Positions 705 to 54,602 of a DNA stretch of 64,000 nt are shown here, one piece after another; position 1 is the stretch's first letter; the number at the start of each line of letters is the position of its first letter. A model generated the notes under the pieces. It ran no database searches and was not told where the DNA came from. It was given only the letters and a program-made list of their open reading frames with translations. Source of the stretch: a virus (lineage: Duplodnaviria; Caudoviricetes); IMG/VR virus record IMGVR_UViG_3300020049_005939, positions 10,891-74,890 of that record. The stretch is one strand, 5' to 3'. Made by a program: the position numbers and the translations under genes.

Positions 705-991
705 CACATCATGAATTTGTATCAGCGGATATGCATACGTTAAGAGTAGCAACTAAAAACTATCCTAATGGTGTGCCTGCTTTTTATGAAAAACAAAACC
801 TATATGAATTACATACTAAATATCTCATACACACCTCTCTTCATTGCCCAGATAGCTGGGCAGTTAAAACTCCCTCTGGTTACGTTTCATATTGGCTTAA
901 TGGAAAACAATGCATAACACCCGATGAAATTAATCCAATACTTGCAATGGAAAAAATGAAAGATGTGTTTTCGGACGTAGACGATGATTAA
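701..991 (+). CDS. small protein with shared C-terminal helix
   Basis: Ends MEKMKDVFSDVDDD. Confidence 0.65.
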   Translation: MTHHEFVSADMHTLRVATKNYPNGVPAFYEKQNLYELHTKYLIHTSLHCPDSWAVKTPSGYVSYWLNGKQCITPDEINPILAMEKMKDVFSDVDDD

Positions 992-1397
992 ACTAGAACC
1001 TAACACATTAGTTCAGTCTGCTTCAGGACATGAATGGAAATTCATTGAGTATTACGATGGTGACAAAGAGAAGTGGATGGACATGAAGACTGGACTAGTT
1101 TGGTATGATGTTGAGGATGGTATGATGAATCATCGTAAAGCTATTGAACTATTTAACACTGATGATAAACGATTGCCTACTAAAGAAGAGTGGGAAGAAG
1201 CAGAGAAGCATGAAATTAGATTTGTATTACCTAATTTTGACAATATGTGGTTCTTGTCTTCGTCGGTTCACCCCGGCTTCTCCAATGTCGCCTACGTCTT
1301 CAGTGGGCGGGATGGCGACATCGTCACCGGCCTCCGTGACGTCGCCGGCTATTCGGTTCGTTGTATTTCGAGTAAATCGAAAAGGGCGCGGCGCTAG
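984..1397 (+). CDS. Lcl/DUF1566-like (C-type lectin fold) protein, copy 1, with DGR-like variable region
   Basis: Motifs DMKTGLVW, RLPTKEEW, SSSVHP, SVRC; 3' end is GC-rich and rich in NNC codons. Confidence 0.8.
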   Translation: MIKLEPNTLVQSASGHEWKFIEYYDGDKEKWMDMKTGLVWYDVEDGMMNHRKAIELFNTDDKRLPTKEEWEEAEKHEIRFVLPNFDNMWFLSSSVHPGFSNVAYVFSGRDGDIVTGLRDVAGYSVRCISSKSKRARR

Positions 1398-1443
1398 CGT
1401 GGAATAATCATAAGATGCTTAAGAAACTTAAGGATATCTTTTA

Positions 1444-1731
1444 ATGAAAAAAATGTTTTTATTTTTCAATACAATGAATAGATATAGAATAGTTGGAAAC
1501 ATTGTTCATATATCTACCCCAAGAGAATCAAACAAAAAAGAACACCCATTATCCCGAGAATTATTTCGAGAAAGAGCATCTAAGATCTTTGTTGTTTGGA
1601 AATTTTTGTTCCCCGAATATGAATATAACGGAAAAAAAGTTTCTAGAGAAACCTTCAAAAAAGAACTAAAAAAATATACCGAGAAACAAAGATTAACACT
1701 AAAATTAATGAATTCTTTCGATGAAACTTAA
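1444..1731 (+). CDS. small protein with shared C-terminal helix
   Basis: Ends VSRETFKKELKKYTEKQRLTLKLMNSFDET. Confidence 0.65.
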   Translation: MKKMFLFFNTMNRYRIVGNIVHISTPRESNKKEHPLSRELFRERASKIFVVWKFLFPEYEYNGKKVSRETFKKELKKYTEKQRLTLKLMNSFDET

Positions 1732-2080
1732 ATACTTTAAATTAGCAAAAAAGATGTCCAAGTTTAGCACCCATTCCCAGCATCAATTGGGAGCGGTCAT
1801 AGTTCGTAAAACTCAAATAGTTGGGTTAGGTTTTAATCAAATTAAAACTCATAGCAAAAGCCCCCATCCATATAAGTCTATACACGCAGAGTTCTCTGCT
1901 ATTCTCAATAGTGGAGAATCTGATCTAAAGAATCACGATATTTACATCTATAGAGAAAAGAAAGATGGAACACTGGGAGATTCTTTCCCTTGTACAGTTT
2001 GTCTTAAAATGTTAACAGATCTTAACATAGGTAACATCTTTTACATTAAAAATAACCAATTTGAGAAGCATCGTGTATAA
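1721..2080 (+). CDS. cytidine/dCMP deaminase-family zinc protein
   Basis: HAE (SIHAEF) and PCxxC (FPCTVC) zinc motifs. Confidence 0.85.
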   Translation: MKLKYFKLAKKMSKFSTHSQHQLGAVIVRKTQIVGLGFNQIKTHSKSPHPYKSIHAEFSAILNSGESDLKNHDIYIYREKKDGTLGDSFPCTVCLKMLTDLNIGNIFYIKNNQFEKHRV

Positions 2081-2348
2081 ATCGGGGTATTGTATAGATG
2101 GGTGGCATTCTAAGCGATATTACATATTTAATGACGTAATGCTCATTGGTAGAAAAATCCAAAGATCGGCTTTAGTCGCTTCTAATGCTACTCATTGGAG
2201 TGTCATTTATGACAAGTATAATTGTTTTTTCTTAGTAAATGGAGTAACGGATAAAAAACACTTGACAAGAATTTCTATAAAAAAAGAGTTGCAAAATAGA
2301 AAACTTAAACATATACTCATAGATGTCTTTAAGGAGGACAAAGAATGA
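2061..2348 (+). CDS. small protein with shared C-terminal helix
   Basis: Ends RKLKHILIDVFKEDKE. Confidence 0.55.
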   Translation: MRSIVYKSGYCIDGWHSKRYYIFNDVMLIGRKIQRSALVASNATHWSVIYDKYNCFFLVNGVTDKKHLTRISIKKELQNRKLKHILIDVFKEDKE

Positions 2349-3418
2349 AACCAACTAAGATTTTTGATATGATGGATTTGGCAATGCGAGCAAGGGATTT
2401 GGGATTAACCTTTAACCCCCTTTTTGTGGGACCCCCGGGGTTAGGTAAGTCGGAGATTGTTCAACAATGGTGCGGTAAAGAGAAGATTCCATTTATTGAT
2501 CTACGAGCTGCTCTTTTGGAAGCTCCCGATCTAATCGGCTTCCCTGTTGTAACAATGATCGCCGGTAGACAGACCACCGTACACGCTACGCCCGACTTTT
2601 GGCCTACAGAAGGCAGAGGAGTCATCTTCCTCGACGAAGTTAATAGGGGAACTACAAGCGTTATGAACTGCTTCATGCAGCTACTAACTGATCGTAAAGT
2701 TAAACAATACACCCTTCCACAAGGATGGGTTGTTGTTGCGGCCATTAACCCTGAAAACGCGGAGTATGACGTTAATACTATGGACCCAGCTCTTCGAGAT
2801 CGATTTGAGCTATTTGAAGTATCTTATGATAAGTCTTCTTTCATGGAATTCATGAAGTCTAATGACTGGGATAAATCTGTAGTCAATTTTATCGAATCTA
2901 ATGTGTGGCAATACGTTCGACCAGAAGAGTTGAGCAATGTCCCTGGAGCTAAGTACCTATCTCCACGAACCTTCTCAAAGCTCAACACTGCGCTTAAAGC
3001 GGGTATTAACTCTAAAGAAGATGAATTGATTATCTTTGAATCAGTTCTCGGACGAAATACAGGCTCTTCTTTCTTTCATTTTCGACATAACGAGTCTCCT
3101 GTGCTATTTAAAGACTTAGTTACCGATACTAAGAATGCTCTTAAGAAACTCAAGAAGTACAGCAATCCTGAGGATCTTAAGAATGGATACATCAGTGTTA
3201 CTGTTAAGGATATTATCGAGAATGATGGAGAACCAACTTTAATCACTGACGAACTGTTGATTGATATCCTTAAGATTATTCCTGCTGACCAAGCTCCCCA
3301 ATTGGTATTGGACCTAGCCCTTAAACGCGGCGACCATAAAGGGGAAATCTTCGAACGACTTAAGAAAGATAAAGATCTTAAGAAGCTACTTTCTACTATA
3401 CTTCACCATAAAGGGTAG
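2345..3418 (+). CDS. MoxR-like AAA+ ATPase
   Basis: Walker A GPPGLGKS, Walker B IFLDEVNR, AAINP sensor, DPALRDRF arginine finger. Confidence 0.85.
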   Translation: MKPTKIFDMMDLAMRARDLGLTFNPLFVGPPGLGKSEIVQQWCGKEKIPFIDLRAALLEAPDLIGFPVVTMIAGRQTTVHATPDFWPTEGRGVIFLDEVNRGTTSVMNCFMQLLTDRKVKQYTLPQGWVVVAAINPENAEYDVNTMDPALRDRFELFEVSYDKSSFMEFMKSNDWDKSVVNFIESNVWQYVRPEELSNVPGAKYLSPRTFSKLNTALKAGINSKEDELIIFESVLGRNTGSSFFHFRHNESPVLFKDLVTDTKNALKKLKKYSNPEDLKNGYISVTVKDIIENDGEPTLITDELLIDILKIIPADQAPQLVLDLALKRGDHKGEIFERLKKDKDLKKLLSTILHHKG

Positions 3419-3446
3419 TGTATAGTAATTGTATTGGAGGTAATTA

Positions 3447-4670
3447 ATGGAAGATCTAAAGGGAAGACAACTAGCATCTGCTATCTATAAACTGCTGAGT
3501 GATGAACCTTTCTATGGGGCATTCTTACAATCGTTAACTATTTTTTATAGTGAAATGGTTCCGACTGCCGCTATCTTTTTTGATAAACATTCTAAAGAAT
3601 TTAAAATTACTATCAATGATAAATTTTTTAATTCATTAGTGTTGGACGAAAAGGCTGGGGTTCTTCACCATGAGGTTCTTCATTTTGTTCATAAACACAT
3701 GCTTCGTTTATTCACAAGCGAATGTATGAATGATAGAAATGAAATGATGTTGAGAAATGTCGCCGCTGATATGGCAATTAATCAACAGATTAAAGTCTTA
3801 CCTAAAGATTGTGTAGATTATAAAAAATGGAAACTTAAGTCGGGAGAAATTTTTCCACCCAACCAAACTTCTGAAACTTATTTAGATTTGCTTCGTAACA
3901 ACAAAGAAGCCAATAAAGATAAGTTTAAGCAAAAAGGTGAAGATGGCGAGGATGGAGAACCAGGAGAAGGGGAAGGTGTTTTCGATAAACATTTCTACGA
4001 TAGTCTTACTGACGAAGAAAAGCAAAAGTTTCTAGATGAATCTAAAAAACTGATTCAAAGAAGCATTGAGAAATTGAATCACGATTACTCAAAGGTGCCT
4101 CAATCCGTTAAAGATCTTCTACAAGACATTGATGGGATGAATACTAATATTAATTATAAACAGATTCTTAAGAATGCTATTAAGAAAACTGTGTCTTGCC
4201 AGGATAGGTCCAGCACATGGAAACGTCCAAACAAACGGTACGGAGTGTACTCCCCCGGAACAAAGCTTGGTAATCTACCGCAATTAGATTTCTATATTGA
4301 CACTTCGGGTAGTATTTCTTACAAAGAACTTAGTTCATTTTTAAATATTATGAATGAGTTTTTGAAGGTTGGTGTAAGAACTTGCGATCTGTTCTTGTGG
4401 CATACGTCTGTATATAAACATAAGAAACATAAAAAAAATAACCCATTTAAAGAAAATGAAGTTGAAGCGGGTGGGACTGACATCAGCGAAGCGATGGCTT
4501 CTATTAAGAAACGTAGACCCGACCTTGCCATTATTTTAACCGATGGATACTACGAGATGGCTAATGTGGCAATCGACTCTCAAGTAATCTTTATTATCTC
4601 CGAAGGAGGCAATATGAATCACCCATTAGCTAAAATTGGAAAGACTATTGGATTTGGTGGATTAAAATGA
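3447..4670 (+). CDS. metallopeptidase-vWA protein (DUF2201-like), partner of the AAA
   Basis: HEVLH zincin motif, acidic/Gly linker, MIDAS IDTSGS, GGTD and ILTDG. Confidence 0.85.
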   Translation: MEDLKGRQLASAIYKLLSDEPFYGAFLQSLTIFYSEMVPTAAIFFDKHSKEFKITINDKFFNSLVLDEKAGVLHHEVLHFVHKHMLRLFTSECMNDRNEMMLRNVAADMAINQQIKVLPKDCVDYKKWKLKSGEIFPPNQTSETYLDLLRNNKEANKDKFKQKGEDGEDGEPGEGEGVFDKHFYDSLTDEEKQKFLDESKKLIQRSIEKLNHDYSKVPQSVKDLLQDIDGMNTNINYKQILKNAIKKTVSCQDRSSTWKRPNKRYGVYSPGTKLGNLPQLDFYIDTSGSISYKELSSFLNIMNEFLKVGVRTCDLFLWHTSVYKHKKHKKNNPFKENEVEAGGTDISEAMASIKKRRPDLAIILTDGYYEMANVAIDSQVIFIISEGGNMNHPLAKIGKTIGFGGLK

Positions 4671-5065
4671 AAAAACTAGAGCCTAATACATTAGTTCAGT
4701 CTGTCTCTGGTCATCAATGGAAGTTCATTGAATATTACGATGGTAATAAAGAAAAGTGGATGGATGTGCAGACTGGACTAGTTTGGTATGATGTCGAAGA
4801 CAAGTCAATGGATCATTATAAAGCTATTGAACTATTTAACACTGATGATAAACGATTACCAACTAGAGAAGAGTGGGAAGAAGCAGAGAAACATGAGATT
4901 AGATTTGTATTACCTAATTTTAACGATAAGCGGTTCTGGTCTTCGTCGGTTCACCCCGACTACTCCTATTACGCCTACTACTTCGTTGGGCGCGGTGGAG
5001 GCTTCGGCCACGGTGTTCGCGGCTTGGTCTACGACGGTTCGGGCCGTTGTGTGGGAAAACTATGA
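4667..5065 (+). CDS. Lcl/DUF1566-like protein, copy 2, with DGR-like variable region
   Basis: N-terminal ~85 aa nearly identical to copy 1; WSSSVHP followed by a divergent GC-rich tail. Confidence 0.8.
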   Translation: MKKLEPNTLVQSVSGHQWKFIEYYDGNKEKWMDVQTGLVWYDVEDKSMDHYKAIELFNTDDKRLPTREEWEEAEKHEIRFVLPNFNDKRFWSSSVHPDYSYYAYYFVGRGGGFGHGVRGLVYDGSGRCVGKL

Positions 5066-5247
5066 AAAACACTATACTAGAATATAACACTGGTGAATAT
5101 CTAGGTCAACTTGGTGAGAATCGATTTCTCTTTACAAAAGGTTCCACTAACCATATACTATTTACAATGAAGTCAGAAAAAGAAATCCTTTTTGATTTAG
5201 CTAAAAAACAATTAGAGGAAGTGTTTAATGATGAAGAAACTGATTAA
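5062..5247 (+). CDS. small protein with shared C-terminal helix
   Basis: ATGA overlap with copy 2 suggests a start at 5062; ends LAKKQLEEVFNDEETD. Confidence 0.6.
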   Translation: MKNTILEYNTGEYLGQLGENRFLFTKGSTNHILFTMKSEKEILFDLAKKQLEEVFNDEETD

Positions 5248-5764
5248 GTATGGAATAGTATTTAAAGTATTTACCGCTATCTGTCTATTTCCAAACACTT
5301 CTTATCCTAGAGAGAAGAGTAACGAACTAAGTGTTGCATATGGATTGGGGGTATTTAACTCGGCTAAATCTTCGATTGCTGAAACTAAAACAGCTAATTT
5401 GGCTTATCGTTATTTTCTAGTCCCTGGAATTTACCTACAAAGTCGAGCAGGGTTTTGGGGTGATGGATCTAGAAATGAAAATAGACGCAGTAGTAGCTAC
5501 GGATCATTAGGTCCAGGTATTGAGGTAGATCTTAAGCCGATTGAGCTTAGGAGTGGGTGGGGGGTAGCGTACATTAGTACTCCCGACAGTTTTTTAGGTG
5601 CCCGCATCCCTCAATTTAATGGCGATTTATACGTTGGAGTAAGGGATAAGAACTCTAATGGTATTGGGATGTCATATGGTCATATTTCCAATGCGGGAAT
5701 TAAACCAGGGGTAGTTAATAAAGGTAGAGATTTCTTAGTTTTAGAAATATCTAAAAAGTGGTAA
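5228..5764 (+). CDS. pagL: outer-membrane beta-barrel, PagL-like lipid A 3-O-deacylase
   Basis: N-terminal signal-like segment, alternating beta-strands, HISNAGI...N.G motif, terminal Trp. Confidence 0.7.
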   Translation: MMKKLIKYGIVFKVFTAICLFPNTSYPREKSNELSVAYGLGVFNSAKSSIAETKTANLAYRYFLVPGIYLQSRAGFWGDGSRNENRRSSSYGSLGPGIEVDLKPIELRSGWGVAYISTPDSFLGARIPQFNGDLYVGVRDKNSNGIGMSYGHISNAGIKPGVVNKGRDFLVLEISKKW

Positions 5765-6160
5765 ATGAAACGTAAATACTACAAAGAAGACTTTATAGAA
5801 TTAAAATTACCTAACTTAAATTCTTTAAGGGGTTCAACTAAAAAACAAATGGGACCTATGGAAAAACTCCAAGATTGGTTTATTAAAGAAGTTGGATTAG
5901 AAACTGCTAGAGGTTCTTGGTTAAAGCTTCATCTCCGATTAGAAGAAGAAAAAAAGATTGACAAACTTACTTACAAGTATTGTAAATCTAAATACCCTTG
6001 GGTAACTAGACAAGGTGCAAATTCAGCAGTGGCCATGTATAATCTACAACTTGCTCCCGCTAGTTTTTTATCAAACCCTAAATGGACCCGGAAGGGTTAC
6101 GCTTATCTTAAAAAAGAACCAATTGATAAACTGAAAGAGGCATTTCCATATGAAGTATAA
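5765..6160 (+). CDS. hypothetical protein
   Basis: 131-aa ORF; KLKEAF near the C-terminus is a weak match to the shared helix. Confidence 0.55.
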   Translation: MKRKYYKEDFIELKLPNLNSLRGSTKKQMGPMEKLQDWFIKEVGLETARGSWLKLHLRLEEEKKIDKLTYKYCKSKYPWVTRQGANSAVAMYNLQLAPASFLSNPKWTRKGYAYLKKEPIDKLKEAFPYEV

Positions 6161-6389
6161 AGTAGTCTCCTTTAACGGCGAGCGTTGCTTACCCATTAAA
6201 AGTAAACCTCATTTAGAAGATGCCCTAAAATTACAGGAAGATTACGGGTTATTTCATTTAACTCTTGACGAAGTTGCTGAAACATGGGAAACTTATTCAG
6301 AAGACTACTACTGCGCTAGTTGGTTAGTCGATAATAAAGAATCAGTCGAAGAAGCCTTCGGCGTTCAATTGGAGGAAATTAAAGAATGA
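6150..6389 (+). CDS. hypothetical acidic protein
   Basis: 79-aa coupled ORF. Confidence 0.55.
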   Translation: MKYKVVSFNGERCLPIKSKPHLEDALKLQEDYGLFHLTLDEVAETWETYSEDYYCASWLVDNKESVEEAFGVQLEEIKE

Positions 6390-7527: not shown

Positions 7528-7528
7528 C

Positions 7529-8506
7529 ATGAGTAAATTCGTTGTTAAGAAGGTTACTAATATGTACATGACTCAGGAAGGCTTAGAGCTTCCTGAAAGT
7601 GATTTCTCACATATGACCCCGGACGGTCATTTTATTCAGTATGATTATATTGAAGACGAAAACTCGACCGATGTGATTGTTGAACCCGGCATTTGGAGTA
7701 TTAAGAAAAGTTCAATGGGTATGTATCTTAACAAGACTTCTTATGTTAAGGATAACATTCTCGAAGAGTTTGTAAATACTAAACAGATTGAAGAAGCGGT
7801 GGATTGCTTTATTGAAAATATTCATATTTATCCTGAACTTGGATATGAAGTGGCGCGAAGGGCGTTACTATTATACGGCCCTCCCGGTGTAGGTAAGAGT
7901 ACAGCAATTACTAAAATTATCAGTAAATACGATAGGGACGGTAAAACTGCGGTTTTGACGTGGCCGACTGACGTTCTTGATGCTTACGAAGTAAAAGAAT
8001 TTATTAAACGATTTAAGTACAAAGATGTAGAGAAACTCTTTCTTATTGCTGAGGACTTAGGTGGAGTAGAAGCATCACAAGTTAAACTGAAAAGTTCTTC
8101 GTCTATGTTATCTCTTCTAGACAATCAAGAAAAGACATTTACCCTACCTATTTTCATTATCGCCACAACTAATCACCCTGAGATTTTTCATGGTAATATC
8201 GCAAACCGTAAAGGCCGGTTTGACGACCGAATGGAAGTAACTTCCCCAGACGGAGAAACCAGAAAAAAACTGTTAACCTTCTTCAGTAAGGGACAAGCCC
8301 CCGAAGACGCTCTTAATTTGATGGCTAGCGACAAGTGTAAAAAGTTTCCTCCTGCTCACATTAAAGAAGTGTACGTTCGTCATAGACTTCGTAAAAAATC
8401 AATGAAAGATGTTATTTTAGAGCTTATTAAAGAAGACGTTGAGTTTGAAAAAGAATTTGCTAAGACTAAATCTGTTGGAATGGGATTAAGTTCTTTCGAT
8501 GATTAA
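7529..8506 (+). CDS. AAA+ ATPase (BCS1/FtsH-like AAA module)
   Basis: YGPPGVGKS, LIAEDL, ATTNHPE, RKGRFD. Confidence 0.8.
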   Translation: MSKFVVKKVTNMYMTQEGLELPESDFSHMTPDGHFIQYDYIEDENSTDVIVEPGIWSIKKSSMGMYLNKTSYVKDNILEEFVNTKQIEEAVDCFIENIHIYPELGYEVARRALLLYGPPGVGKSTAITKIISKYDRDGKTAVLTWPTDVLDAYEVKEFIKRFKYKDVEKLFLIAEDLGGVEASQVKLKSSSSMLSLLDNQEKTFTLPIFIIATTNHPEIFHGNIANRKGRFDDRMEVTSPDGETRKKLLTFFSKGQAPEDALNLMASDKCKKFPPAHIKEVYVRHRLRKKSMKDVILELIKEDVEFEKEFAKTKSVGMGLSSFDD

Positions 8507-9907: not shown

Positions 9908-10650
9908 AAAAAAATAAATTAGAAAAGATTCTTATTGTTAGTGATACCCATCGACCTTACCATAATAAAAAAGCGTGGGCTTTGATGCTAAGGGCAGCAA
10001 AAGAATTCAAACCTGATACGGTTGTGATTATGGGAGACTACGCAGATTTTTTTGACGTGTCTTCCCACTCTAAAAGTCCTGAACGTCGGTTTCAATTAGC
10101 TGAAGAGATTGCCGATGTGAAGGTCGGCCTACAAGAATTGAAAGATCTGGGAGCAAGTAGACAAATTTTTATTGAAGGTAACCACGAAAATAGACTAGTT
10201 CGGTACCTAGCCGATAAAGCTCCCGAACTGTTTAAACTAATTAACATACCTGATATTTTAGAACTTAAGAAGTTTGACTTTGAATATGTTCCTTATAAAG
10301 AATACACCACTATTGGTAAGATGAATTTTACCCACGATCTAGGACAAGCAGGCAGAACGGCTCACCTAAAGGCTTTGGATAGCTTCCAAGACAATATTAT
10401 CATTGGACATGTTCATCGTATGCATTACTCTGTTGAAGGCGATGCTAAGGGCGTTAAGCATCTCGGAGCTTCATTTGGTTGGCTTGGTGATGAAAATGAA
10501 GTTGATTATATGCATAAGGCAAAGATTAAACGCGAATGGTGTTTAGGATTTGGTATTGCATACCATAATAAAACTACTGGCAATGTTTATGCTGTTCCAG
10601 TTCCTATTATTGAAAATACTTGTCTTATTGAGGGTAAATTAATTAAATGA
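9904..10650 (+). CDS. calcineurin-like metallophosphoesterase
   Basis: SDTH, GDYAD, GNHE, THD, GHVH. Confidence 0.85.
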   Translation: MKKNKLEKILIVSDTHRPYHNKKAWALMLRAAKEFKPDTVVIMGDYADFFDVSSHSKSPERRFQLAEEIADVKVGLQELKDLGASRQIFIEGNHENRLVRYLADKAPELFKLINIPDILELKKFDFEYVPYKEYTTIGKMNFTHDLGQAGRTAHLKALDSFQDNIIIGHVHRMHYSVEGDAKGVKHLGASFGWLGDENEVDYMHKAKIKREWCLGFGIAYHNKTTGNVYAVPVPIIENTCLIEGKLIK

Positions 10651-12498: not shown

Positions 12499-12520
12499 TA
12501 AATAGAAACGAGTTTACTCC

Positions 12521-37038: not shown

Positions 37039-37821
37039 CTATTTGTAATACCAGTGGTACCCTCGCGCTCCTACCCGATCTCCCTTGAGTACCCTATTAA
37101 CTTCTTTGGGTTTAAATCCATCAGATTCAACATCTTTTAGGTGTTGATATTCCTTAATCTCCCCAGTAGTCATGTGTTTTCTTATGATAGGTTTAAGCCA
37201 CGATTGTTTGAATGACCCTATAAGGTTAAGAGCTTCTTTTTTGTAGGACTCAGGGTCATCCGTGGTCTTATAGAACCAACAATAGTCTTGGCCTTTAGCT
37301 GATTCTTTATTTAGACAGTCGTAGATGGATCTAACTGAGAAACCAGCGCGACGAGCATCGTGTACTCTTTCGTAAAATTTAACATCTCCACTGTAAATGG
37401 ATACTGATACTATTGGAACAGCTCTATGAGCGGACTCTTCCTTCATTCTCGTAATTCGGTGTTGTTTTTTAATCGGATCTTTCCAAGACTCTTTTACTTT
37501 ATTAGAGATATATTCTCTTGGGATTGTGGGTCTAGCTGGGATACAATTATATCCTTTCTGAGTTGTGTACGCTTCGTAAAGTTCTATAAAATAATTTTCT
37601 TTTTCAATTAAACTGGTTCCGAATGGTACTTCGTAAATTAAAGTGAAAGTAAATTTATCAGCTCCATATTTATGGATAGCTTTATGTAAAGGTCTTTGAG
37701 ATTTTTCATTAGACTCTAGTTGATGTCTTTTCCACCTATCGTAAGGATTTTGTAAAGATGTTGAACCGATGTAAATTCTAGTATTAACTGAATTTGTTAT
37801 TTTATATATGTAACCGGGCAT
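37039..37821 (-). CDS. free-standing GIY-YIG homing endonuclease
   Basis: MPGYIYKITN..N.RIYIGST, R...H, GYN; AGGAG supports ATG 37821 rather than 37869. Confidence 0.85.
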   Translation of the reverse strand: MPGYIYKITNSVNTRIYIGSTSLQNPYDRWKRHQLESNEKSQRPLHKAIHKYGADKFTFTLIYEVPFGTSLIEKENYFIELYEAYTTQKGYNCIPARPTIPREYISNKVKESWKDPIKKQHRITRMKEESAHRAVPIVSVSIYSGDVKFYERVHDARRAGFSVRSIYDCLNKESAKGQDYCWFYKTTDDPESYKKEALNLIGSFKQSWLKPIIRKHMTTGEIKEYQHLKDVESDGFKPKEVNRVLKGDRVGARGYHWYYK

Positions 37822-37840
37822 TATATTATCTCCTAGAGCT

Positions 37841-37869
37841 AGTATAACAAAAGAAAAGGCAGAAGTCAA
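37841..37869 (-). promoter_or_regulatory. sigma70-type promoter for the GIY-YIG gene
   Basis: TTGACT-17 nt-TATACT with TG extension. Confidence 0.65.
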
Positions 37870-37909: not shown

Positions 37910-40296
37910 TTATGAAGCGTTAACTACGTTACGGACGAGCACGTTATGGCCCGGTGCTGAGCAAAACAATGCTTGATCCGAGAAACAACGTAACTCGTAT
38001 CCAGCAGAGTTTTCAAGATCTCGGAAGAACTCGTCGCCCTGACCAGGACGTTTGAACGTCAAGTCAGTTGAACCAATTCTGTACCAATCTTCAACAGCAA
38101 CTAGGTAAGCATAACCTTCTTTAACGTGAATAGAAGGCTCAATTACGAGCGTTCCATTTTGCGAATGGAAAGTTAGCGACTTAGCGCCGTTTTGCATTGA
38201 CTTCTCGCTGTACGACTGATCGTACATACGAAGAGCGGCTTGGTCATTCAAGAGGTTCGACCATGCTCGGTTATTAACCAAACATAGAAGTTCTCCGTCT
38301 TGACCTTTTTCTACAGCGCGAGCTGCTGCGTTTGTAAGTTTGTTAAAACTTAGTGCAGCAGAAGCAGCGTCGTAGGTGTTACCTTTGAAAAGGTTATAAG
38401 CACTGGTGTCAATACCGAACAAAGTACCAGACGTAATGCTGATAATTTTATGAATTCCTGCGAATTCATTTCCGTATGCGCCTTTGTGCCAGATAACGTC
38501 TTCTGAGTCAACAGTTACGACGACGCCAGGAACGGCTGAAGCTAGGGTAAGAGTACGAAGATCCATATCAACCGATTTAATGACTGCTTCACCGCGTGAA
38601 GTCAATCCGTCGTTTGAACGAATTTCGATAGGCATGTTCTCAGAACCTGCCCAAATACCGGGTGCCCATTCGGAAGTACGAATGGTTAGAACTGCGCCTG
38701 AAACAGCAGAGATACGACCGTATCCCATTTGTCCGTAGAGCATTTCGATTTCTAATTTCTTAGCCATCGAACGCAACATGTTAGCAACCAAGAATTTGGT
38801 TGCATCCATGAATGCTTTTTCTCCACCTTGTGCAGCTCTGCTTGCCGAAGAGTAACCAAGGATAGAACGAAGAACCAAAGGATTACCTTTGATTGTCGCA
38901 TCTTTGATTACGCCTGCGACTGGAGCATTCAAGTTGAATGCATCTTCGTCGCTACCGGCAAAGGTTCGTTGCCGGAATGTTATCGCTAAAGCTTTTTATC
39001 TCTAGCTTCTTCTAGTTTCCTAGAAGGTCAGCATATCTTTTCATCCTATATATAGGAGCTGAAGTCTCGTGGCAGAATTATATTCTAGATTATTCTCTAG
39101 GTTCATCTGCTATGCGTTGCGCGTGTGAAAAATCTTTATTTTCTTCACTTCCGCTCTGATTAGCATCGAAAATATATTTAAAAGTGTATCCCTTACTGCT
39201 ATTTCTTCCATAAGCTTTTTTGCAAATGGATACAACATTAGATGGGTTTAAACCGTAATTTAAACATTCTCTAACAGTTTGTAAAATAGTTATTTCTCCA
39301 GTTTTAATATTTGTCATTTCAATTGGGCGTCCACCTAATCCTCTAGCAATTTTAATTCTTTGCTCGGTAGATCGGACTTCCCCTCTTCGACAAAGGACGG
39401 GTTTTCCTTTTTTAGCTTCACTAATCTTTTTTCTTAATTCATCGGAACAAATTCCGTTTTGTTCGCCGCCAGCTCTATGATTATATCCATTCGGATGCAT
39501 AGAGTTATTCGATTGAACAAATTGAACTTCCAATGAATTGAGTTCAGATATAGTGTCAGCAGTTGCAATTTCTTCCACGGTAAAGTTTTGTCTACCGTGT
39601 TTTTTAATAGCACTGCTAATATGCCTATTGCCACGTTTTTCATTACAATGATCTTCAAATCTATCATTAACAGAAGGTTTAGTTGTTTGACCAACATAGA
39701 CCTTACCGTCTATCAGATTTGTGATTTTGTAAATTTTACCGTAGCTCATATTTTCGTTTTAGCCTTCCAAGTTTTTACTTCAGTACTTATTGTAACATTA
39801 CTGTTACAAAGGGGCAACCTTTATTTTACCCCGTGTTCTAATCCCAAGATAACAGGCTGGTGATATAGATTTGATATTGTTACCGAAAAGCTGTTAAGGC
39901 TTTTCTTCTGCATATCGCTATGCAGTCCAGACTATATTTTCACCCAGAGTTTGGGTGGCGCGACCTCGCGGAGAAATTATATTCTAATTGTTAAAACAAC
40001 TTAGTTTCATTCTCTAGTCGTTGCGGCTGGCCAAATTTTGATTTTTAGCCTTCACCTCGAATTGTCTCATTAACTACCAGGGATGTCAATGAGAGATTTT
40101 CGTTTTTTTCGCGCTTCCTAAGCTCTAGTTACCTAGAACTTCCGGCAATCATTTCACCGGGCTGTCGATCCTTAGGAGCGAACTTGATTTTGTTAAGTAA
40201 TTTAACTCCATCTGGAATCAATTCTTTCAGCTTATCTGCATAAGCCTCTTTAAAGAGTCCATTCAGAGTTTGAATGTTATTTGAAGTACTAGACAT
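37910..40296 (-). CDS. major capsid protein, spliced join(40156-40296, 39828-39871, 37910-38966), 413 aa
   Basis: Exons join in frame: MSSTSNN...RQPG|NLYHQPVILGLEHGV|TFAGSDEDAFNLNAPVAG...; downstream of scaffold; followed by a terminator. Confidence 0.85.
38967..39827 (-). mobile_element. group I intron 2 (861 nt) carrying GIY-YIG ORF
   Basis: 5' exon ends in U; P1 GGGGU/GCCCC; P10 AACCUUU/AAAGGUU; P7 GCAUA/UAUGC; terminal G. Confidence 0.88.
39090..39749 (-). CDS. intron-encoded GIY-YIG homing endonuclease
   Basis: KIYKITN..DGKVYVGQT, GYN, NUMOD-like C-terminal repeats. Confidence 0.85.
   Translation of the reverse strand: MSYGKIYKITNLIDGKVYVGQTTKPSVNDRFEDHCNEKRGNRHISSAIKKHGRQNFTVEEIATADTISELNSLEVQFVQSNNSMHPNGYNHRAGGEQNGICSDELRKKISEAKKGKPVLCRRGEVRSTEQRIKIARGLGGRPIEMTNIKTGEITILQTVRECLNYGLNPSNVVSICKKAYGRNSSKGYTFKYIFDANQSGSEENKDFSHAQRIADEPRE
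39872..40155 (-). mobile_element. group I intron 1 (284 nt), ORF-less
   Basis: P1 CCGGU/GCCGG; P10 AAUC/GAUU; P7 GACUA/UAGUC; P9 hairpins; terminal base appears to be A. Confidence 0.8.
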
Positions 40297-43933: not shown

Positions 43934-43942
43934 TTTAATCTC

Positions 43943-44365: not shown

Positions 44366-44366
44366 G

Positions 44367-44519: not shown

Positions 44520-44520
44520 A

Positions 44521-46060: not shown

Positions 46061-46061
46061 A

Positions 46062-48158: not shown

Positions 48159-48159
48159 A

Positions 48160-48489: not shown

Positions 48490-49105
48490 TACTCCAATTA
48501 GTTGAATCTAATCGATATTGCGTACCAACTAACGTGTATGTAAAAATTTTTCTAGCCGTATTTCCTGAAATAGTTGCGCTGGTGTAATCTATTTGAGTTA
48601 TTCGTTCTTGCTTTGTACCAAAGTTTGCCCACGTAATGGCTTCTTGAACATCGTGAGTAGTTAAAATTTGTTGTTTTAAATTATTAACAAAAGCTCTTTT
48701 AACACCAGCAGTTAACCCATTTTCAGAACCAATATTTAAAACACTGGACGGTGTTGCTGTGGTCCCGTCAATGGTAACCGTAATAGGGCTAATGACATTT
48801 ACATCTAACCCTTGTTTACCAGAAACATTGGTAGATGTAATTAAATTAACACCGTCACCAATTCTAATACTGTCGTCAGTTTGAGAAATATCAATGAGTA
48901 CATCACTGATAATGTTAACATCTAATCCGTTTTTAGGACCAACGGTTGTTATAGTCGCATCGATAGACCCATCGGTGATTTTAACTTCACCAATTGAAGC
49001 AGTGACAGTAGCATCGACCCTCAATCTGTCGGTTGCTTCGTCGTAAGATTGAACTATAGCTTGGTTAGCACTTAATTGGCTGTATGGAGCATTAGGACCA
49101 GGCAT
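48482..49105 (-). CDS. structural protein
   Basis: Repeated GLDVN motif; late promoter and SD immediately upstream. Confidence 0.5.
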   Translation of the reverse strand: MPGPNAPYSQLSANQAIVQSYDEATDRLRVDATVTASIGEVKITDGSIDATITTVGPKNGLDVNIISDVLIDISQTDDSIRIGDGVNLITSTNVSGKQGLDVNVISPITVTIDGTTATPSSVLNIGSENGLTAGVKRAFVNNLKQQILTTHDVQEAITWANFGTKQERITQIDYTSATISGNTARKIFTYTLVGTQYRLDSTNWSIV

Positions 49106-49118
49106 TTTTTCTCCTATT

Positions 49119-49129
49119 TAAGTTGTTAA
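49119..49129 (-). promoter_or_regulatory. late promoter motif TTAACAACTTA
   Basis: Between portal stop and next gene; directly followed by AATAGGAG. Confidence 0.6.
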
Positions 49130-49148
49130 ATTAGGATTTTATTTAATA

Positions 49149-51245
49149 TTATCTCTGTCTTACATTACCCATAGCAGATGCTTGTAGTTCAGGGTTAGCT
49201 AACATCGAAGCATCCACCTGGGGTATGTTTGGAAGTCTTTGACTTTCAACTCCCGGACCCTGCATTTGGTCTGGGTTTGCGATAATTCCATTAGGTTGAG
49301 CCATCATCTCAGCATTTTGGCTATTTTGTTGGGATTGCTGAGAAGGCGCGCCTTGTGGACCCCCTTGTGGAGCGCCAGGTTGACCCTGTGGAGCGCCTTG
49401 TTGCTGCTGTTGACCCTGTAGGGGTTGTTCACCGAGCATTCCTAGAAGCTCAGGATCGGTGTTTCTTAAGTAATCAATGTGTTGTTGAATATGGTTAAGA
49501 ACATTTTTAACAAGTTCAGGGTTTTTTCTTAGATCTGGATCAGCTATGACGCCTTTGTGTTCGATAATATGCTGTTTATGAGAGTCAATAAGGGCAGCTT
49601 GAACTGCTTCACCCTCTAACAGCTGCTCATTTTCCGATTTAATCAATAGAAGGTCAGAAGTATCTCCTTCAAACATAGCGTCTAATCTTCCTGTGTTCAA
49701 TACTTGAAGATATTGCTGAGGATTTTTAATTAGATTCATTTGTAGGAGCTGTTCGGCCATCTGAACACGTCCCGCTGTACTTCTCGCTAAGGGGTTCCCC
49801 ATGTCAACTACAACACGGTTAATGGCAGAGATCTTATCTCCGGTAAACTCTTTTAAAAGAGGTCGATTATGTTTACCGACCAACGCGATAACCTTAGGAG
49901 TCATTGCATAGTCTTTAAGAATGTTAATAACGCCAGTCCCACAGTCTTCGATAAGCTTTACATAGCTTTGTTGTAGACCAGACATGAACTGGAGGGCTTG
50001 AGACTGAACAAGAGCTAGAGCTGCGCCGGATTTCAATGAAGCTTCTGGATTTCCTCTAGCCACAGAGTTAACTCCAGAGATAGTTTCAGCGGATTGAATC
50101 AATACTTCTAGGAATTTGAATACCTCAGCAGGGGTTTGAGCCAACTGTAGAGGTTCAGGCTTAACATTACCTTCAATAATGTTCATTCCTTCGGATAATT
50201 GAGAAATAGCAATGTCTGCATTCTTAGGAACGAAGAGACTTTGAACACCAAAGGCATTTTGGTTAGTCATGATGGTACTATAAAGAGCATTAATACACTC
50301 TTGGATAGGGAACACGTCAAACATTGGGCTATAACCATAGGGAGTTCCCATGATATCGCTAGGAGCAATACGATAAATTGGAATTCCTCTATACGGAAGC
50401 TTAGTGTCGATTAAGTTTGTTCCAGAATCGACGAATAACATGTACCGACCTTCAGGCATGGCGTCAGTTCTTTTGTGATAGAACTCGAAAACAGCAACAT
50501 CATCAGTATCGTCATTAGAAAAGTTAGACAATCTATAAACAGAGCTGACGTTTTTAGGTGGAATTGCTCTAATTGCACTTTCGTGCTCGGGATACTTCGC
50601 GATTAGATCAAATCGGTTTTTAAAGCTTCTAACTAGCATCCATTCATGGTTCCAAGACTCTTTAGTGCCATCAACAACCACATCGTATGGAGATAAATTA
50701 GAGAATTCAACTTCCCCTTCTTTAATTACTTCACCAGTTTCATCATCAATGTCGTATTCGTCGCCAGCGGTGGCGTTCCACTCCATTTTAATAAACCCAG
50801 CGCCAAGAACAATCGACATTTCACAAGCAGCTTTGATAGAAGCTTCTAGTCCCTTCTCACGCATGTAATAATCAAGGATGCCGTTAGCTAAATATGTCTG
50901 AGCATACGATTTATAATCAGTATTAATGGCTCTTGCCTCCATTACAGGACGATTAGCTGTAATCATCACATAAATGTGTTGCGCTAAGTTCCTAAAATGA
51001 TTGACAGGAAAGGATACTAACTCTCCTTCTTCACCTGTGTAACCAACTGAGTGACCATATCCGGCGTCACCAGCGTAGTCACCGTGGTAAGCTCTCCACA
51101 TTCTGCTAAGTTTTTCTAGATAGTGATTAGCTTCCATAAGATTGTAGAAGCTTTTAGACTTATCTAATAAAACTGCTGCGGTTTTATTTGGGTCTTCATA
51201 TGAAGCAAAGTATTGCTTAGATTGAGCCGGGGTGCTGTACTGCAT
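49149..51245 (-). CDS. portal protein
   Basis: Directly after terminase; 698 aa; Gln/Pro-rich C-terminal tail; P22-like architecture. Confidence 0.8.
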   Translation of the reverse strand: MQYSTPAQSKQYFASYEDPNKTAAVLLDKSKSFYNLMEANHYLEKLSRMWRAYHGDYAGDAGYGHSVGYTGEEGELVSFPVNHFRNLAQHIYVMITANRPVMEARAINTDYKSYAQTYLANGILDYYMREKGLEASIKAACEMSIVLGAGFIKMEWNATAGDEYDIDDETGEVIKEGEVEFSNLSPYDVVVDGTKESWNHEWMLVRSFKNRFDLIAKYPEHESAIRAIPPKNVSSVYRLSNFSNDDTDDVAVFEFYHKRTDAMPEGRYMLFVDSGTNLIDTKLPYRGIPIYRIAPSDIMGTPYGYSPMFDVFPIQECINALYSTIMTNQNAFGVQSLFVPKNADIAISQLSEGMNIIEGNVKPEPLQLAQTPAEVFKFLEVLIQSAETISGVNSVARGNPEASLKSGAALALVQSQALQFMSGLQQSYVKLIEDCGTGVINILKDYAMTPKVIALVGKHNRPLLKEFTGDKISAINRVVVDMGNPLARSTAGRVQMAEQLLQMNLIKNPQQYLQVLNTGRLDAMFEGDTSDLLLIKSENEQLLEGEAVQAALIDSHKQHIIEHKGVIADPDLRKNPELVKNVLNHIQQHIDYLRNTDPELLGMLGEQPLQGQQQQQGAPQGQPGAPQGGPQGAPSQQSQQNSQNAEMMAQPNGIIANPDQMQGPGVESQRLPNIPQVDASMLANPELQASAMGNVRQR

Positions 51246-51246
51246 A

Positions 51247-52698
51247 TTATTTTCTTTTCCTTATATTGAAAATTTTATTATAAATTTCAACAGAATTTTC
51301 GCCTACTCGGTTAAAGGCATCTTTATTACGAACGTATAAATCTTGTTTATTGTACCCGTACATGGCTGGGTAAGGGTTTTTTTTAAACTGAACTTGTCTA
51401 ATTAGGTATTTACCCGCATCTAAAGCATCGTAATGCCCATCATCAGGGGAACGCATGAGCTTCCCGCTCTTTCTATCGCGTTTACCGTTCTTTAAATGTC
51501 GGATGAAGGTTTCACAACGAGGGTTTATAATGATTTTTTGATTTGAAAGCTTTACTCTAAAGTCGTTGAAGGCGGCATCATTGTCGTCTTTCTTAGCCGC
51601 ATCAAAAAAGAGTCGGCCATCAGACACTCTCTGTAATTCAGAGGTTACAATGTAGTTAATGTCACTTACCCTATTTGGGGTTCTTAGTTCACCTGTCAAA
51701 ACATTAGTCCAAAGGTCTGCTTCTTTTTTAAGAATGTCTGCTGCTAGATTAGGAAGCTTTAAATCGATTCCTTTTACAACAATTTCATCTTCAATAACTA
51801 CTTTATCAGATCTAAAATCGTAATATCCAAATAAAACAACGGTAAGATCCTTATATCCAAGATCCATAGAAACATACGAATCAAAATGAGGAGGTTTTGG
51901 CCAATCTTTTACAATTAGTTTCTGTAAATCTTCATTAAATTCTGGAAAGACTACACTTTCTTCATCTCTAATAACTTCACAGAGATATTCACGTCGAAAT
52001 TTAGGTGCTGTTACCCCACCCATCTCACGGATAATACGATCTACTTGTTCTTTACTTAAAAGAGGATTATCAAAGATAGTTTTTTTAGTTAAAGTTCCAT
52101 TAAGATCAGCTTCTTCAATAAATTTATTAAAATCGTGATCGGGATCGGAATGCGGGGTAGAAGCTAAAACAATTTTACCATTAGTGTGAGTAGTAGTTGG
52201 TAATAAAACTGATTTAACAACGTCTTCAAGCTTATCACAGAAACCTGCTTCATCTACCAGCACTAAGTGAGACTTCTGACCCCTTAGACGCTCGTAGTGC
52301 CCGCCATCTGATCCGGCTAATTGAATCTGACTACCATTACTGAAGTAATAAGTAAACTTACTTTCATTGTATTTTGGTTTTAAGTCATCAGGACAGTCAG
52401 CCATTACTTCATCAAAGAGTTTTTCAAAGATTGAACGAACGTGAAGCTTAGTATCAGTCATTAATTTAATAATACTGTCTGGGTGACGGATAGCTTGTTC
52501 TAAAGCTAGGATAGAAAGTAAGTAGGACTTGCCTGTCTGGCGAGCTAGGAGCCAAACTAACGTGCTATTCCCAGGAGATGAATAAAATAAATCATACATC
52601 TCTGCTTGAACTTTATGGCATTTGAATTTAAGAATTCCTCGTCGCCACAGTTCAGCAATAGCTTGTTCTTTATTTATTTTTAGTGTCTGGGTTTTCAT
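51247..52698 (-). CDS. terL: terminase large subunit
   Basis: ARQTGKS Walker A, LRG..VDEAGF Walker B, SMDLG and D..DA nuclease acidic residues. Confidence 0.92.
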   Translation of the reverse strand: MKTQTLKINKEQAIAELWRRGILKFKCHKVQAEMYDLFYSSPGNSTLVWLLARQTGKSYLLSILALEQAIRHPDSIIKLMTDTKLHVRSIFEKLFDEVMADCPDDLKPKYNESKFTYYFSNGSQIQLAGSDGGHYERLRGQKSHLVLVDEAGFCDKLEDVVKSVLLPTTTHTNGKIVLASTPHSDPDHDFNKFIEEADLNGTLTKKTIFDNPLLSKEQVDRIIREMGGVTAPKFRREYLCEVIRDEESVVFPEFNEDLQKLIVKDWPKPPHFDSYVSMDLGYKDLTVVLFGYYDFRSDKVVIEDEIVVKGIDLKLPNLAADILKKEADLWTNVLTGELRTPNRVSDINYIVTSELQRVSDGRLFFDAAKKDDNDAAFNDFRVKLSNQKIIINPRCETFIRHLKNGKRDRKSGKLMRSPDDGHYDALDAGKYLIRQVQFKKNPYPAMYGYNKQDLYVRNKDAFNRVGENSVEIYNKIFNIRKRK

Positions 52699-53098
52699 TA
52701 GTTAGAGCCAACAACTCGACATCTGATAGTTTTTGAGCTTCAACTCTAATAGTTTTAGGTTTATTTTGAAGCTGTAATAGAATTTTAGAGTAAATTTCAA
52801 CTTTCCTTGATTCTTCTAAGGTCAATTCGCGTTCAATTGAAACATCGCGCAACTTTTGTAGTTGCATTCGACAAATTGACTCTTCATCTGAAGATAAGAA
52901 CATTTCAGTTAAAGGTTCTGACTGTTCTTTAACCAATAAAGGAGAAGTTTTGGATAATAGATCTTCTAAATGTTTATTTTTTGTCTCTAAAGACACTAAT
53001 TGTTTACTAATAGACAATATAGTAGCTTGTTGTGCAGTGCAAAACTCTAAAAGAGCAGCGTAGTCAGCAAAGTCTTTACTAATTTCATTAATATTCAT
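52670..53098 (-). CDS. possible terminase small subunit
   Basis: Helical 142-aa ORF overlapping the terL start; position only. Confidence 0.35.
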   Translation of the reverse strand: MNINEISKDFADYAALLEFCTAQQATILSISKQLVSLETKNKHLEDLLSKTSPLLVKEQSEPLTEMFLSSDEESICRMQLQKLRDVSIERELTLEESRKVEIYSKILLQLQNKPKTIRVEAQKLSDVELLALTNENPDTKNK

Positions 53099-53100
53099 AA

Positions 53101-53337
53101 TTAAGAGAAAACCGATTTTAGTTTTTTCAACATTTTTTGTTCTAATCGAATAGATCTGATTAGTTTTTCAAGTTCATCAGTTTTTTTGTGATGAAAAGTT
53201 ATTGGTTCTCCTCTAAAAAGAAGAGTTAAATAAATTAATTTTTTAGTTATCTTGCTTCTAACTAAAGTTTTAGAATTAATATCTTCATCTTTAATTAAAG
53301 GAATTTTTAACCAAGGGGTTAGATCAAAAGTTCCCAT
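53101..53337 (-). CDS. small protein with shared C-terminal helix
   Basis: Ends IRLEQKMLKKLKSVFS. Confidence 0.55.
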   Translation of the reverse strand: MGTFDLTPWLKIPLIKDEDINSKTLVRSKITKKLIYLTLLFRGEPITFHHKKTDELEKLIRSIRLEQKMLKKLKSVFS

Positions 53338-53618
53338 TATTTAGCTACTCTGAAAGATTGTCCTAGCTTAATAGCTCCAATTGAACCTTTTAGAGCATCT
53401 AATTCTTCAAATCTTTTTTGAATGTCGGTATTTTGAAGATCAATTTTATCTTTAAGTTGTTTAAGTTCTTGATTTTCTTCAATTTTTAACATTCGATAGC
53501 TAAGAACGGATAGACAAACCAAAGCGGAAACATCTATAACTGATGATTCTTTAAGGAGAATTTTTAAAGCGAATGCCAATAGAATGCTCAGCGGAAGAAA
53601 TTTTACTAATTTTTCCAT
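53337..53618 (-). CDS. two-TM coiled-coil membrane protein
   Basis: Two N-terminal hydrophobic segments and a charged coiled coil. Confidence 0.5.
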   Translation of the reverse strand: MEKLVKFLPLSILLAFALKILLKESSVIDVSALVCLSVLSYRMLKIEENQELKQLKDKIDLQNTDIQKRFEELDALKGSIGAIKLGQSFRVAK

Positions 53619-53715
53619 ATTAACCTCTTTTAAAATGTAAAGCCGTTAACGTAAGCCACTTTATTTATGTATTGCCTTAAAAAAGGCTGTTGGCATTGTA
53701 AAAACCGCTATAAGA

Positions 53716-53744
53716 TAAGTTGTTAAATCGAAATTAACAACTAT
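53716..53744. promoter_or_regulatory. back-to-back late promoter motifs (53716-53726 on -, 53734-53744 on +)
   Basis: AGTTGTTAA-N7-TTAACAACT inverted repeat between the divergent terminase operon and endolysin. Confidence 0.65.
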
Positions 53745-53750
53745 AAGTAT

Positions 53751-54185
53751 ATGAAACAAGATGATAAATTTTACTACTGGGATAAAAAAGAGATTGTTTA
53801 TTTATCTAAACACTTCAGAACTAAAGAGTTTACATGTAGTTGTAAATATCCAGATTGCAAGGATCAGAAGATTTCTAAAGAATTAGTGGATAAACTTGAG
53901 TTTGTGCGCGAAGGAATCAATACAGCAATTGAAATCACTTCAGGGTACCGTTGCGCTAAGCATCAAAAAGATCTTCAGGAGAGCGGTTTACAGACTGCTA
54001 AAGGGCAATCTTCGCATGAGCTAGGAATTGCCGCAGACATAAGAGCACCATCGTTAAGAGTAGTGGAGTTACTACCATTTCTTGACCATAGTTTTGATAA
54101 TGTTGGAATTGCTGCCAGGTTTGCTCATGTTGACATGCGACCAAAAAAACCAGATGGCTCTAAACGTCGCTGGTATTATAAGTAA
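53751..54185 (+). CDS. endolysin, peptidase M15A-type
   Basis: HF...EF.C.C, ITSGYRC, SSH..G.AADI, F.HVD.R. Confidence 0.9.
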   Translation: MKQDDKFYYWDKKEIVYLSKHFRTKEFTCSCKYPDCKDQKISKELVDKLEFVREGINTAIEITSGYRCAKHQKDLQESGLQTAKGQSSHELGIAADIRAPSLRVVELLPFLDHSFDNVGIAARFAHVDMRPKKPDGSKRRWYYK

Positions 54186-54191
54186 CCCGCA

Positions 54192-54602
54192 TTAGCGCCG
54201 CGCCCTTTTCGATTTACTCGAAATACAACGAACCGAAACCCAGCCGTTGAAACGGTCAAAAACAAAGTCTCCACCGCGCCCATCGAAGATGTAGGCGTAA
54301 TAGGAGTAGTCGGGGTGAACTGACGAAGACCAGAACCACTTATTATTAAAATTAGGTAATACAAATCTAATTTCATGCTTCTCTGCTTCTTCCCATTCTT
54401 CTTTAGTAGGCAATCGTTTATCATCAGTGTTAAATAGTTCAATAGCTTTATAATGATCCATTGACTTGTCTTCGACATCATACCAAACTAGTCCAGTCTT
54501 CATATCCATCCACTTTTCTTTATTACCGTCATAGTACTCAATAAATTTCCATTGGTGACCGGAGACAGACTGAACTAATGTGTTAGGTTCTAGTTTAATC
54601 AT
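54192..54602 (-). CDS. Lcl/DUF1566-like protein, copy 3, with DGR-like variable region
   Basis: Same scaffold as copies 1 and 2; tail SVRCISSKSKRARR identical to copy 1. Confidence 0.8.
   Translation of the reverse strand: MIKLEPNTLVQSVSGHQWKFIEYYDGNKEKWMDMKTGLVWYDVEDKSMDHYKAIELFNTDDKRLPTKEEWEEAEKHEIRFVLPNFNNKWFWSSSVHPDYSYYAYIFDGRGGDFVFDRFNGWVSVRCISSKSKRARR

Follow-up and report, generated by a model that had tools for sequence, protein, structure and literature searches.

In the TvpA family of Treponema denticola (PDB 2y3c), C-type-lectin proteins are the scattered targets of a diversity-generating retroelement (DGR), and their C-terminal variable regions (VRs) differ at the adenines of a template repeat, TR (PMC5758913). 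Such remote targets have been described only within genomes that hold the reverse transcriptase (RT) as well, and no such targets are expected where the DGR is associated with a phage (Wu et al. 2018, PMC5758913). In a limited search of the literature we found no description of RT-less target families on phages. Surveys of DGRs start from the RT; target families that have lost it, or have never owned one, go unseen. Here we describe a candidate family of this kind on a virus of the Caudoviricetes. It comprises five paralogous lectin genes (A, B, C, D and T), of which A, B and C are found inside the window, that is, the stretch of 64,000 bp of IMG/VR record IMGVR_UViG_3300020049_005939 that was analysed (bases 10891-74890 of a viral contig of 74,890 bp with 37.5% GC). 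The reading that we favour, at a probability of about 0.6, is that the C-terminal tips of these proteins were made by a DGR and have since been orphaned, and that they now form a fossil repertoire which is under selection and is reshuffled by recombination.

The preliminary description of the window listed three paralogs. All three exist as described, but the family actually has five members, since D and T lie outside the window. Paralog A (984-1397, plus strand) encodes a stand-alone C-type-lectin (Lcl_C-like) protein of 137 aa. Paralog B (4667-5065, plus strand; 132 aa) is located directly 3' of a MoxR-AAA/VWA (DUF2201) gene pair, and paralog C (54192-54602, minus strand; 136 aa) has an orientation opposite to that of A, B and D. 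An alignment confirmed these three open reading frames (ORFs) as paralogs, with a mean column identity of 89%: they are near-identical over 91 codons (the scaffold) and divergent afterwards (the tip). Copy D was detected by blastn of the copies against the viral contig, where it is cut by the contig start (contig bases 1-261). The complete gene, encoding 145 aa, was found at positions 10001-10438 of a JGI contig of 84,930 bp (L002), which matches 10,261 bp of the viral contig at 100% identity. Paralog T (L002:8681-8998) is a short form of 105 aa, encoded some 1.3 kb upstream of D in DNA that is absent from the viral contig. Its N-terminal part differs from that of the other copies, and it carries a GC-rich tip of the same kind. 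An ortholog of T on metagenome contig Ga0315281_10566365 (L016:71-420, GC 0.41) has the conserved scaffold with a different tip of 36 codons, and therefore the short form, too, has several tip alleles in related phages.

The switch from scaffold to tip occurs at the codons for Ser-Ser-Ser, where the GC content of A, B and C rises from 0.34-0.36 to 0.51-0.62. At third codon positions the GC content (GC3) is 0.31-0.33 in the scaffolds versus 0.57-0.72 in the tips, which have a length of 35-37 codons. The VR of A (1257-1364, plus strand) spans 36 codons from Ser-Ser-Ser to Arg-Cys and has a GC of 0.62 and a GC3 of 0.72. The VR of B (4940-5050, plus strand) has 37 codons and a GC of 0.61. That of C (54225-54329, minus strand) has 35 codons, with a GC of 0.51, the same as in D, and a GC3 of 0.57, the lowest of the five. 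The 15, 16 and 14 codons that had been counted between a Gly codon and a Ser codon in the variable segments of A, B and C were correct.

A bias of the differences towards codon positions 1 and 2 of the variable segments had also been reported, and it is clearly present: in the first 19 tip codons the variable columns are distributed as 4/7/2 over codon positions 1/2/3, versus 12/11/30 over the 91 scaffold codons, D included. Over the whole tip, B and D differ at 10, 12 and 3 sites at the respective positions. The pattern in the tips is the opposite of ordinary divergence. The third-position divergence between paralogs amounts to 12% in the tips versus 20% in the scaffolds, a weak difference (pooled P = 0.04, the pairs not being independent). 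Many of the third-position changes in the tips are C to T, as expected for a drift towards the composition of the phage. The amino acids Lys, Glu, Gln, Met and Trp, which cannot be encoded by AAY-derived codons, make up 4.5% of the tips versus 30.8% of the scaffolds in 99 family members. The wider family contains 404 clusters at E <= 0.001, mostly of 110-190 aa.

The origin of the tips was traced with a search pattern of 39 nt, in which the 25 positions common to all five tips were fixed and the variable positions were left open. The pattern had no match in IMG/VR, three matches in 241 million metagenome records and nine in 185,579 species genomes, the latter exclusively in five metagenome-assembled genomes (MAGs) of the Bdellovibrionota, labelled Bacteriovoracaceae, Oligoflexia or Bdellovibrionales. 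(A core pattern of 16 bases gave five matches in IMG/VR, all of which were unrelated chance matches and were rejected.) Two of the nine genomic stretches are adenine-rich and represent TRs, the rest being diversified; one of the metagenome records (L017) is adenine-rich too, and identical to the TR of L024. The adenine-rich copies adjoin a bAvd-like gene and a convergent RVT_1 gene, and the target gene upstream terminates in a VR. These loci are bona fide DGR cassettes, composed of target, bAvd, TR and convergent RT. They are found at L024:2340-5242 (contig 14 of MAG G005) and L021:283-2426 (contig 418 of MAG G003), with the RT encoded on the opposite strand and converging on the TR. Among 401 Bdellovibrionota genomes that were screened with up to two mismatches allowed, the matches were confined to four of the five known MAGs, with extra VRs in two of them. 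One MAG, G002, contains at least five differently diversified targets, three of which are arranged in tandem on one contig.

The mismatches of a bona fide bacterial VR/TR pair, which was used as a control, fall at 16 of 32 adenines versus 2 of 79 other sites, and at no third positions. For the phage the TR of G003 was taken as the reference, a related but non-cognate TR that is equal in length to tips B, D and T. These three tips mismatch it at 57 of 96 adenine sites versus 38 of 237 others (odds ratio 7.7, P = 1.5e-14), and among the tips themselves 27 of 32 adenine-site columns are variable versus 16 of 79 others. The DNA homology between tips and cassettes extends past the stop codon into a GC run of A and C that resembles the site for initiation of mutagenic homing (IMH). 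The proposal that the variable segments are VRs of the DGR type is thus supported both by DNA homology to real TR/VR pairs and by mismatches that are found mainly at TR adenines. The phage scaffolds show no DNA similarity to the bacterial targets; at the protein level a phage scaffold and the target of G005 share 27% identity over the whole lectin domain (E = 1e-11). The unequal lengths of the tips had been taken to imply different templates or indels. Different templates are not required, and a one-codon indel between VR and TR does occur in a bacterial cassette with an adjacent RT, namely that of G003, in which the VR is one codon longer than the adjacent TR. Indels between VR and TR are on record (Wu et al. 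2018, PMC5758913).

The IMH-like sequences at the 3' ends of the genes are in different states. In A, a GC-rich IMH-like remnant (1384-1402, plus strand), which includes the stop codon, differs at a single position from the 3' end of the VR in the Bdellovibrionota DGR targets; between the VR and this remnant an AT-rich hairpin with a stem of 6 bp is found (1366-1382, plus strand). C has an IMH-like GC run at 54195-54205 and the shared hairpin at 54207-54223 (minus strand). In both genes the run, with its single mismatch, is set off from the VR by an AT-rich insert of ~20 nt. This hairpin insert is common to A, C and D and is lacking in bacterial VRs and TRs, and its stability is no better than that of shuffled sequences (z 0.05 to -1.1). 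In B, D and T the IMH-like end has decayed, and the 15 nt 3' of the VR of B are an AT-drifted version of the bacterial IMH. Four of the five phage tips share the third base of the Gly codon that follows the first variable block, a base that the bacterial TRs and VRs do not have. Judging from the sequences, these shared non-adenine bases and the hairpin insert point to a template that probably was the phage lineage's own, or to one ancestor.

A complete DGR has an RT on the same replicon, a TR that differs from the VR only at adenines, and an Avd protein; the phage has none of these. No RVT_1 domain and no bAvd match at E <= 10 were detected in the six frames of the 74.9-kb contig, and no RT family was identified among the ORFs of at least 246 aa. 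The remainder of the genome could be taken from L002. This contig starts inside a gene of 933 aa, of which the window contains an intact copy, and it runs collinear with the right end of the window; the lengths sum to within 121 bp. We therefore read L002 as a circularly permuted assembly of a phage genome of ~84.8 kb, which would accordingly be essentially complete, with a circular map. The ~10 kb that the viral contig lacks contain no gene of more than 248 aa and no RT hit, and none of the genes in this part has a recorded Avd hit. A TR-like repeat is lacking as well, the copies of the VR in the phage genome being confined to the five genes. The absence of TR and RT that had been noted for the window thus holds for the whole ~84.8-kb genome. 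A full RT-TR cassette just outside the window, which according to the preliminary description would turn the family into an ordinary multi-target DGR, is not present in the remaining ~10 kb, and an A-rich template with RT or Avd was not found in the rest of the contig either.

Outside the phage genome, pattern scans showed the cognate TR to be absent from IMG/VR, the JGI metagenome contigs and the GTDB genomes. Copy A had no blastn match among 50,697 phage records, and a peptide-seeded search of IMG/VR yielded no relative. Three contigs with distant homologs (L006, L008 and L009) have no RT in the stretches examined. A compositional scan for adenine-rich, thymine-poor and GC-rich windows was rejected as unspecific. 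A terminase search in the five MAGs found nothing, and thus there is no sign of a related prophage in them.

The preliminary description had considered that the tips are diversified in trans. Present activity of this kind is not supported by the comparison of related phages. Three samples have the same VR of T, 5 contigs encode an identical protein A, and VR alleles recur in several assemblies. In the relative L048 the D-type VR and tail have changed at 3 of 165 nt, all synonymously, versus 31 of 273 nt in the scaffold (P = 1.5e-4). Similarly, the VR of T in L049 has 3 changes in 111 nt, which are confined to third positions, versus 13 in 165 nt of the scaffold. Scaffolds have thus diverged by 8-11% in relatives whose D-type and T tips differ by synonymous changes only. 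Together with the drifted third positions and the decayed or displaced IMH, these synonymous-only differences and recurrent alleles suggest that ongoing diversification is probably absent, or occurs only rarely. From the public runs only Logan contigs of low depth were examined, which show relatives and mosaics and cannot test hypervariability.

Tips and scaffolds have been recombined in several relatives. In P0001 the C tip is carried by a D-type scaffold, in P0161 by one of B type; in L048 it is a D-type tip that occupies the B locus, immediately 3' of the VWA gene. The B locus of L050 has flanks that are 98.2% identical to the window, a scaffold with 27 changes in 273 nt that is partly A-like, and as its tip another allele with a one-codon indel. 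The change of allele is here accompanied by a change of scaffold, which points to recombination. In a Logan contig the upstream DNA of B is joined to a C-like gene with the downstream DNA of C. L009, a contig of 17.9 kb from another sample, contains a hybrid gene (7674-8084), a D scaffold with a C tip, through which the upstream DNA of D is joined to the downstream DNA of C. This junction could be the product expected of recombination between the inverted copies D and C, by which the segment of ~65 kb between them would be inverted; alternatively, it could be an assembly chimera. The mosaics come from independent samples and assemblers. New alleles appear to arrive as recombinants of whole genes or of cassettes.

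The structure model of C, based on an alignment of 99 sequences, has a mean predicted local distance difference test score (pLDDT) of 94.2 and a predicted template modelling score (pTM) of 0.87, with the VR at residues 92-126 of 136; it replaced a first model made with 10 sequences (pLDDT 71). Its structural matches include the C-terminal domain of Lcl (Z 11.7, root-mean-square deviation 3.3 A over 109 residues) and the lectin tip of Bdellovibrio Bd2740 (Z 11.3); the solved DGR targets TvpA and Mtd match with Z 9.2 and 8.5, respectively. The phage proteins are accordingly predicted to have a C-type-lectin/Lcl_C fold with the VR at the C-terminal end, in line with the Lcl/DUF1566-type identity that was originally assigned to them. 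To our knowledge Lcl itself is not known as a DGR target. With the Pfam profile Lcl_C (PF07603, formerly DUF1566), A, B, C and D score 17.2, 20.3, 25.9 and 25.4 bits, at a cut-off of 34.9, and T has no hit; by the Pfam criterion the phage proteins are distant relatives of the family and not members. They lack a signal peptide, whereas the bacterial homolog has a typical Sec signal peptide and a short neck. Their genes are found outside the structural module, among small early-type and metabolic genes (dCMP deaminase, the MoxR AAA/VWA pair, a PagL-like gene, GMP reductase and ribonucleotide reductase). Both the missing signal peptides and this location among early genes and not in the tail module agree with the preliminary description.

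How these observations could have come about can be told as a sequence of events. The family would consist of five small, cytoplasmic, stand-alone C-type-lectin proteins, in each of which, T and D included, the last 35-37 codons represent a DGR VR. Mutagenic retrohoming would have produced the tips, from a GC-rich template like those in the Bdellovibrionota cassettes, at a time when the genes already resided in an AT-rich genome and the paralogs had separated. A long stay in the AT-rich genome before the writing is suggested because the scaffolds agree with the phage in composition, whereas the bases and composition of a GC-rich template are preserved in the tips; that the paralogs had separated by then is suggested because they differ at adenine sites. 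RT and template would now be gone, either because the phage lost a cassette of its own or because the writer was a DGR in the infected cell. Since then the tips would have behaved as ordinary coding sequence, subject to purifying selection and to a slow drift of silent sites towards AT, and the homing signals would have been lost. New combinations would come from homologous recombination among the paralogs and with related phages, moving tip cassettes to other scaffolds and loci. We expect that each tip binds a different intracellular ligand, of the host or of a rival, early in infection.

Several observations fit this account less well. The cognate template was nowhere found, and the footprint was therefore measured against a related, non-cognate TR; moreover, the matching loci in the MAGs have a GC of 0.51-0.65 versus 0.37 in the phage. 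In A and C the IMH-like run is still almost intact. Close relatives carry many different tip alleles, a variety that could also reflect occasional re-diversification, and rare variants within populations could go unseen in low-depth contigs. Finally, identical stretches of 120-330 nt could have led to a chimeric assembly of some of the mosaic contigs.

In an alternative account, the five genes would be live remote targets, whose tips are occasionally rewritten in trans, with RT, Avd and template RNA provided by a DGR of the host, of a co-infecting phage or of a plasmid. In its favour, the tips match a DGR lineage that is found only in Bdellovibrionota genomes, they remain GC-rich within a genome of 37% GC, several tip alleles exist among close relatives, and A and C have retained the IMH-like run with one mismatch. 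Furthermore, avd-TR-brt is functional in trans when placed on a plasmid, and within genomes targets remote from their cassette have been described (Wu et al. 2018, PMC5758913). Nevertheless, we consider it rather unlikely that the tips are rewritten in this way, since the D-type and T tips have been altered at silent sites only while their scaffolds diverged by 8-11%. The third-position divergence of the tips (12%) is near that of the scaffolds (20%), and hence there was no recent resetting from one template; non-adenine sites, too, are variable, at 16 of 79 columns. B, D and T have decayed IMH ends, and those of A and C are set apart from the VR by an insert that is absent from known TRs. Where near-identical phages differ in allele, the difference comes with scaffold differences that point to recombination, and no matching template is present in three public collections. 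The more specific form, in which the phage borrows hypermutation from a host of the Bdellovibrionota type, whose RT, Avd and template RNA rewrite the five tips and in which the frozen alleles are the winners between rare rewritings, is put forward only as a tentative, and on balance doubtful, proposal. If the rewriting in trans were true, it would represent the cross-replicon targeting of a virus by a DGR. We know of no earlier case of a virus that is diversified by the retroelement of its host.

The sharp change in composition at the VR boundary might also result from capture alone, without any retrohoming in the phage lineage, if GC-rich 3' ends had repeatedly been recombined in from the diversified targets of DGR-bearing bacteria or phages. 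Recombination among these lectin genes is frequent, and donor-type genomes such as G002 carry at least five differently diversified targets. Such a history is improbable, however, because it requires at least five independent captures, all joined to an AT-rich scaffold at the same codon, and is therefore less parsimonious. It also leaves the non-adenine features that phage tips share (the third base of the Gly codon in four of the five tips, and the hairpin insert) without a source, as they are absent from the bacterial TRs and VRs and no donor sequence that has them was found in metagenome records or species genomes. Ordinary divergence of the paralogs by positive selection at the binding surface, the footprint being coincidental, is effectively excluded. 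Although lectin-like binding loops often evolve fast, this would not account for the exact DNA identity with real TRs and VRs at 25 fixed positions, for the concentration of changes at TR adenines (P = 1.5e-14) or for the rarity of AAY-impossible residues in the tips (4.5% versus 30.8% in the scaffolds of 99 members), and the GC-rich island in an AT-rich gene would remain unexplained.

Several other features of the genome were observed. The pair of genes upstream of B, encoding a MoxR-type AAA+ ATPase and a metallopeptidase/VWA (DUF2201) protein, occupies 2345-4670 (plus strand), and the order VWA gene, lectin gene, PagL-like gene is kept in the relatives L048 and L050. Pfam lists a weak LAGLIDADG_3 match for the large subunit of ribonucleotide reductase (909 aa; 56901-59630, minus strand), a sign that it may contain an intein or a homing endonuclease insertion. 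A GIY-YIG endonuclease gene (37039-37869, minus strand) adjoins an ORF of 340 aa (37910-38932). Near the right end of the window (63723-63919; contig 74613-74809) a segment of ~165 bp between inverted repeats of ~15-23 bp has the opposite orientation in L002 and L004 (97.5-98% identity). Directly 3' of this segment the viral contig joins L002:3381, omitting ~3.2 kb with genes for a DUF559 endonuclease and a DUF7249 protein. The arrangement could reflect an invertible switch combined with a deletion variant; alternatively, it could be an artefact of the assembly where the contig ends. Outside the window a pentapeptide-repeat gene (L002:3735-4181) varies in repeat number, encoding 148, 178 and 144 aa in L002, L005 and L009, respectively; nearly all differences between these near-identical contigs fall within this gene.

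The family indicates that binding tips made by a DGR can outlive the retroelement as a small, selected repertoire that is reshuffled by recombination. The targets also differ in class from the usual tail-fibre and surface targets, as they are cytoplasmic, stand-alone proteins with a lectin fold, encoded among early and metabolic genes; this location suggests that they may be involved in the intracellular recognition of host or rival molecules. The tie to a DGR lineage that is restricted to the Bdellovibrionota hints at the host, or a gene-exchange partner, of the 85-kb phage.

The phage family can be compared with several described systems. The closest relatives of its tips are the Bdellovibrionota cassettes, with which the VR DNA shares 25 fixed positions and similarity through the stop codon and the IMH-like run, and whose targets have a homologous lectin domain; however, these targets are proteins of ~205 aa that have a Sec signal peptide as well as a short coiled-coil neck, and they are encoded beside bAvd, TR and RT. 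Mtd of the Bordetella phage BPP-1 (PDB 1yu0) is likewise a phage-borne C-type lectin with a C-terminal, adenine-mutagenised VR (fold match Z 8.5), but it forms the tip of a tail fibre and is encoded beside avd, TR and brt, whereas the genes described here lie outside the structural module and have no RT. The best structural match, the C-terminal domain of Legionella pneumophila Lcl (PF07603, PDB 8q4e), to which the Pfam hits are weak (17-26 bits, below 34.9), belongs to a secreted collagen-like adhesin. Cassette-type variation by gene conversion among paralogs is a general principle, and the occurrence of one tip allele on different scaffolds and loci resembles it. The phage nevertheless lacks the layout of an expression site with silent copies, all its copies are intact ORFs, and its recombinants may in part be assembly artefacts. 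With the TvpA family it shares stand-alone targets of similar size with a lectin fold (Z 9.2). Unlike the known remote targets, which reside in the same genome as RT and TR, the phage replicon has neither, and its targets are phage-borne, lack a signal peptide and show signs of halted diversification.

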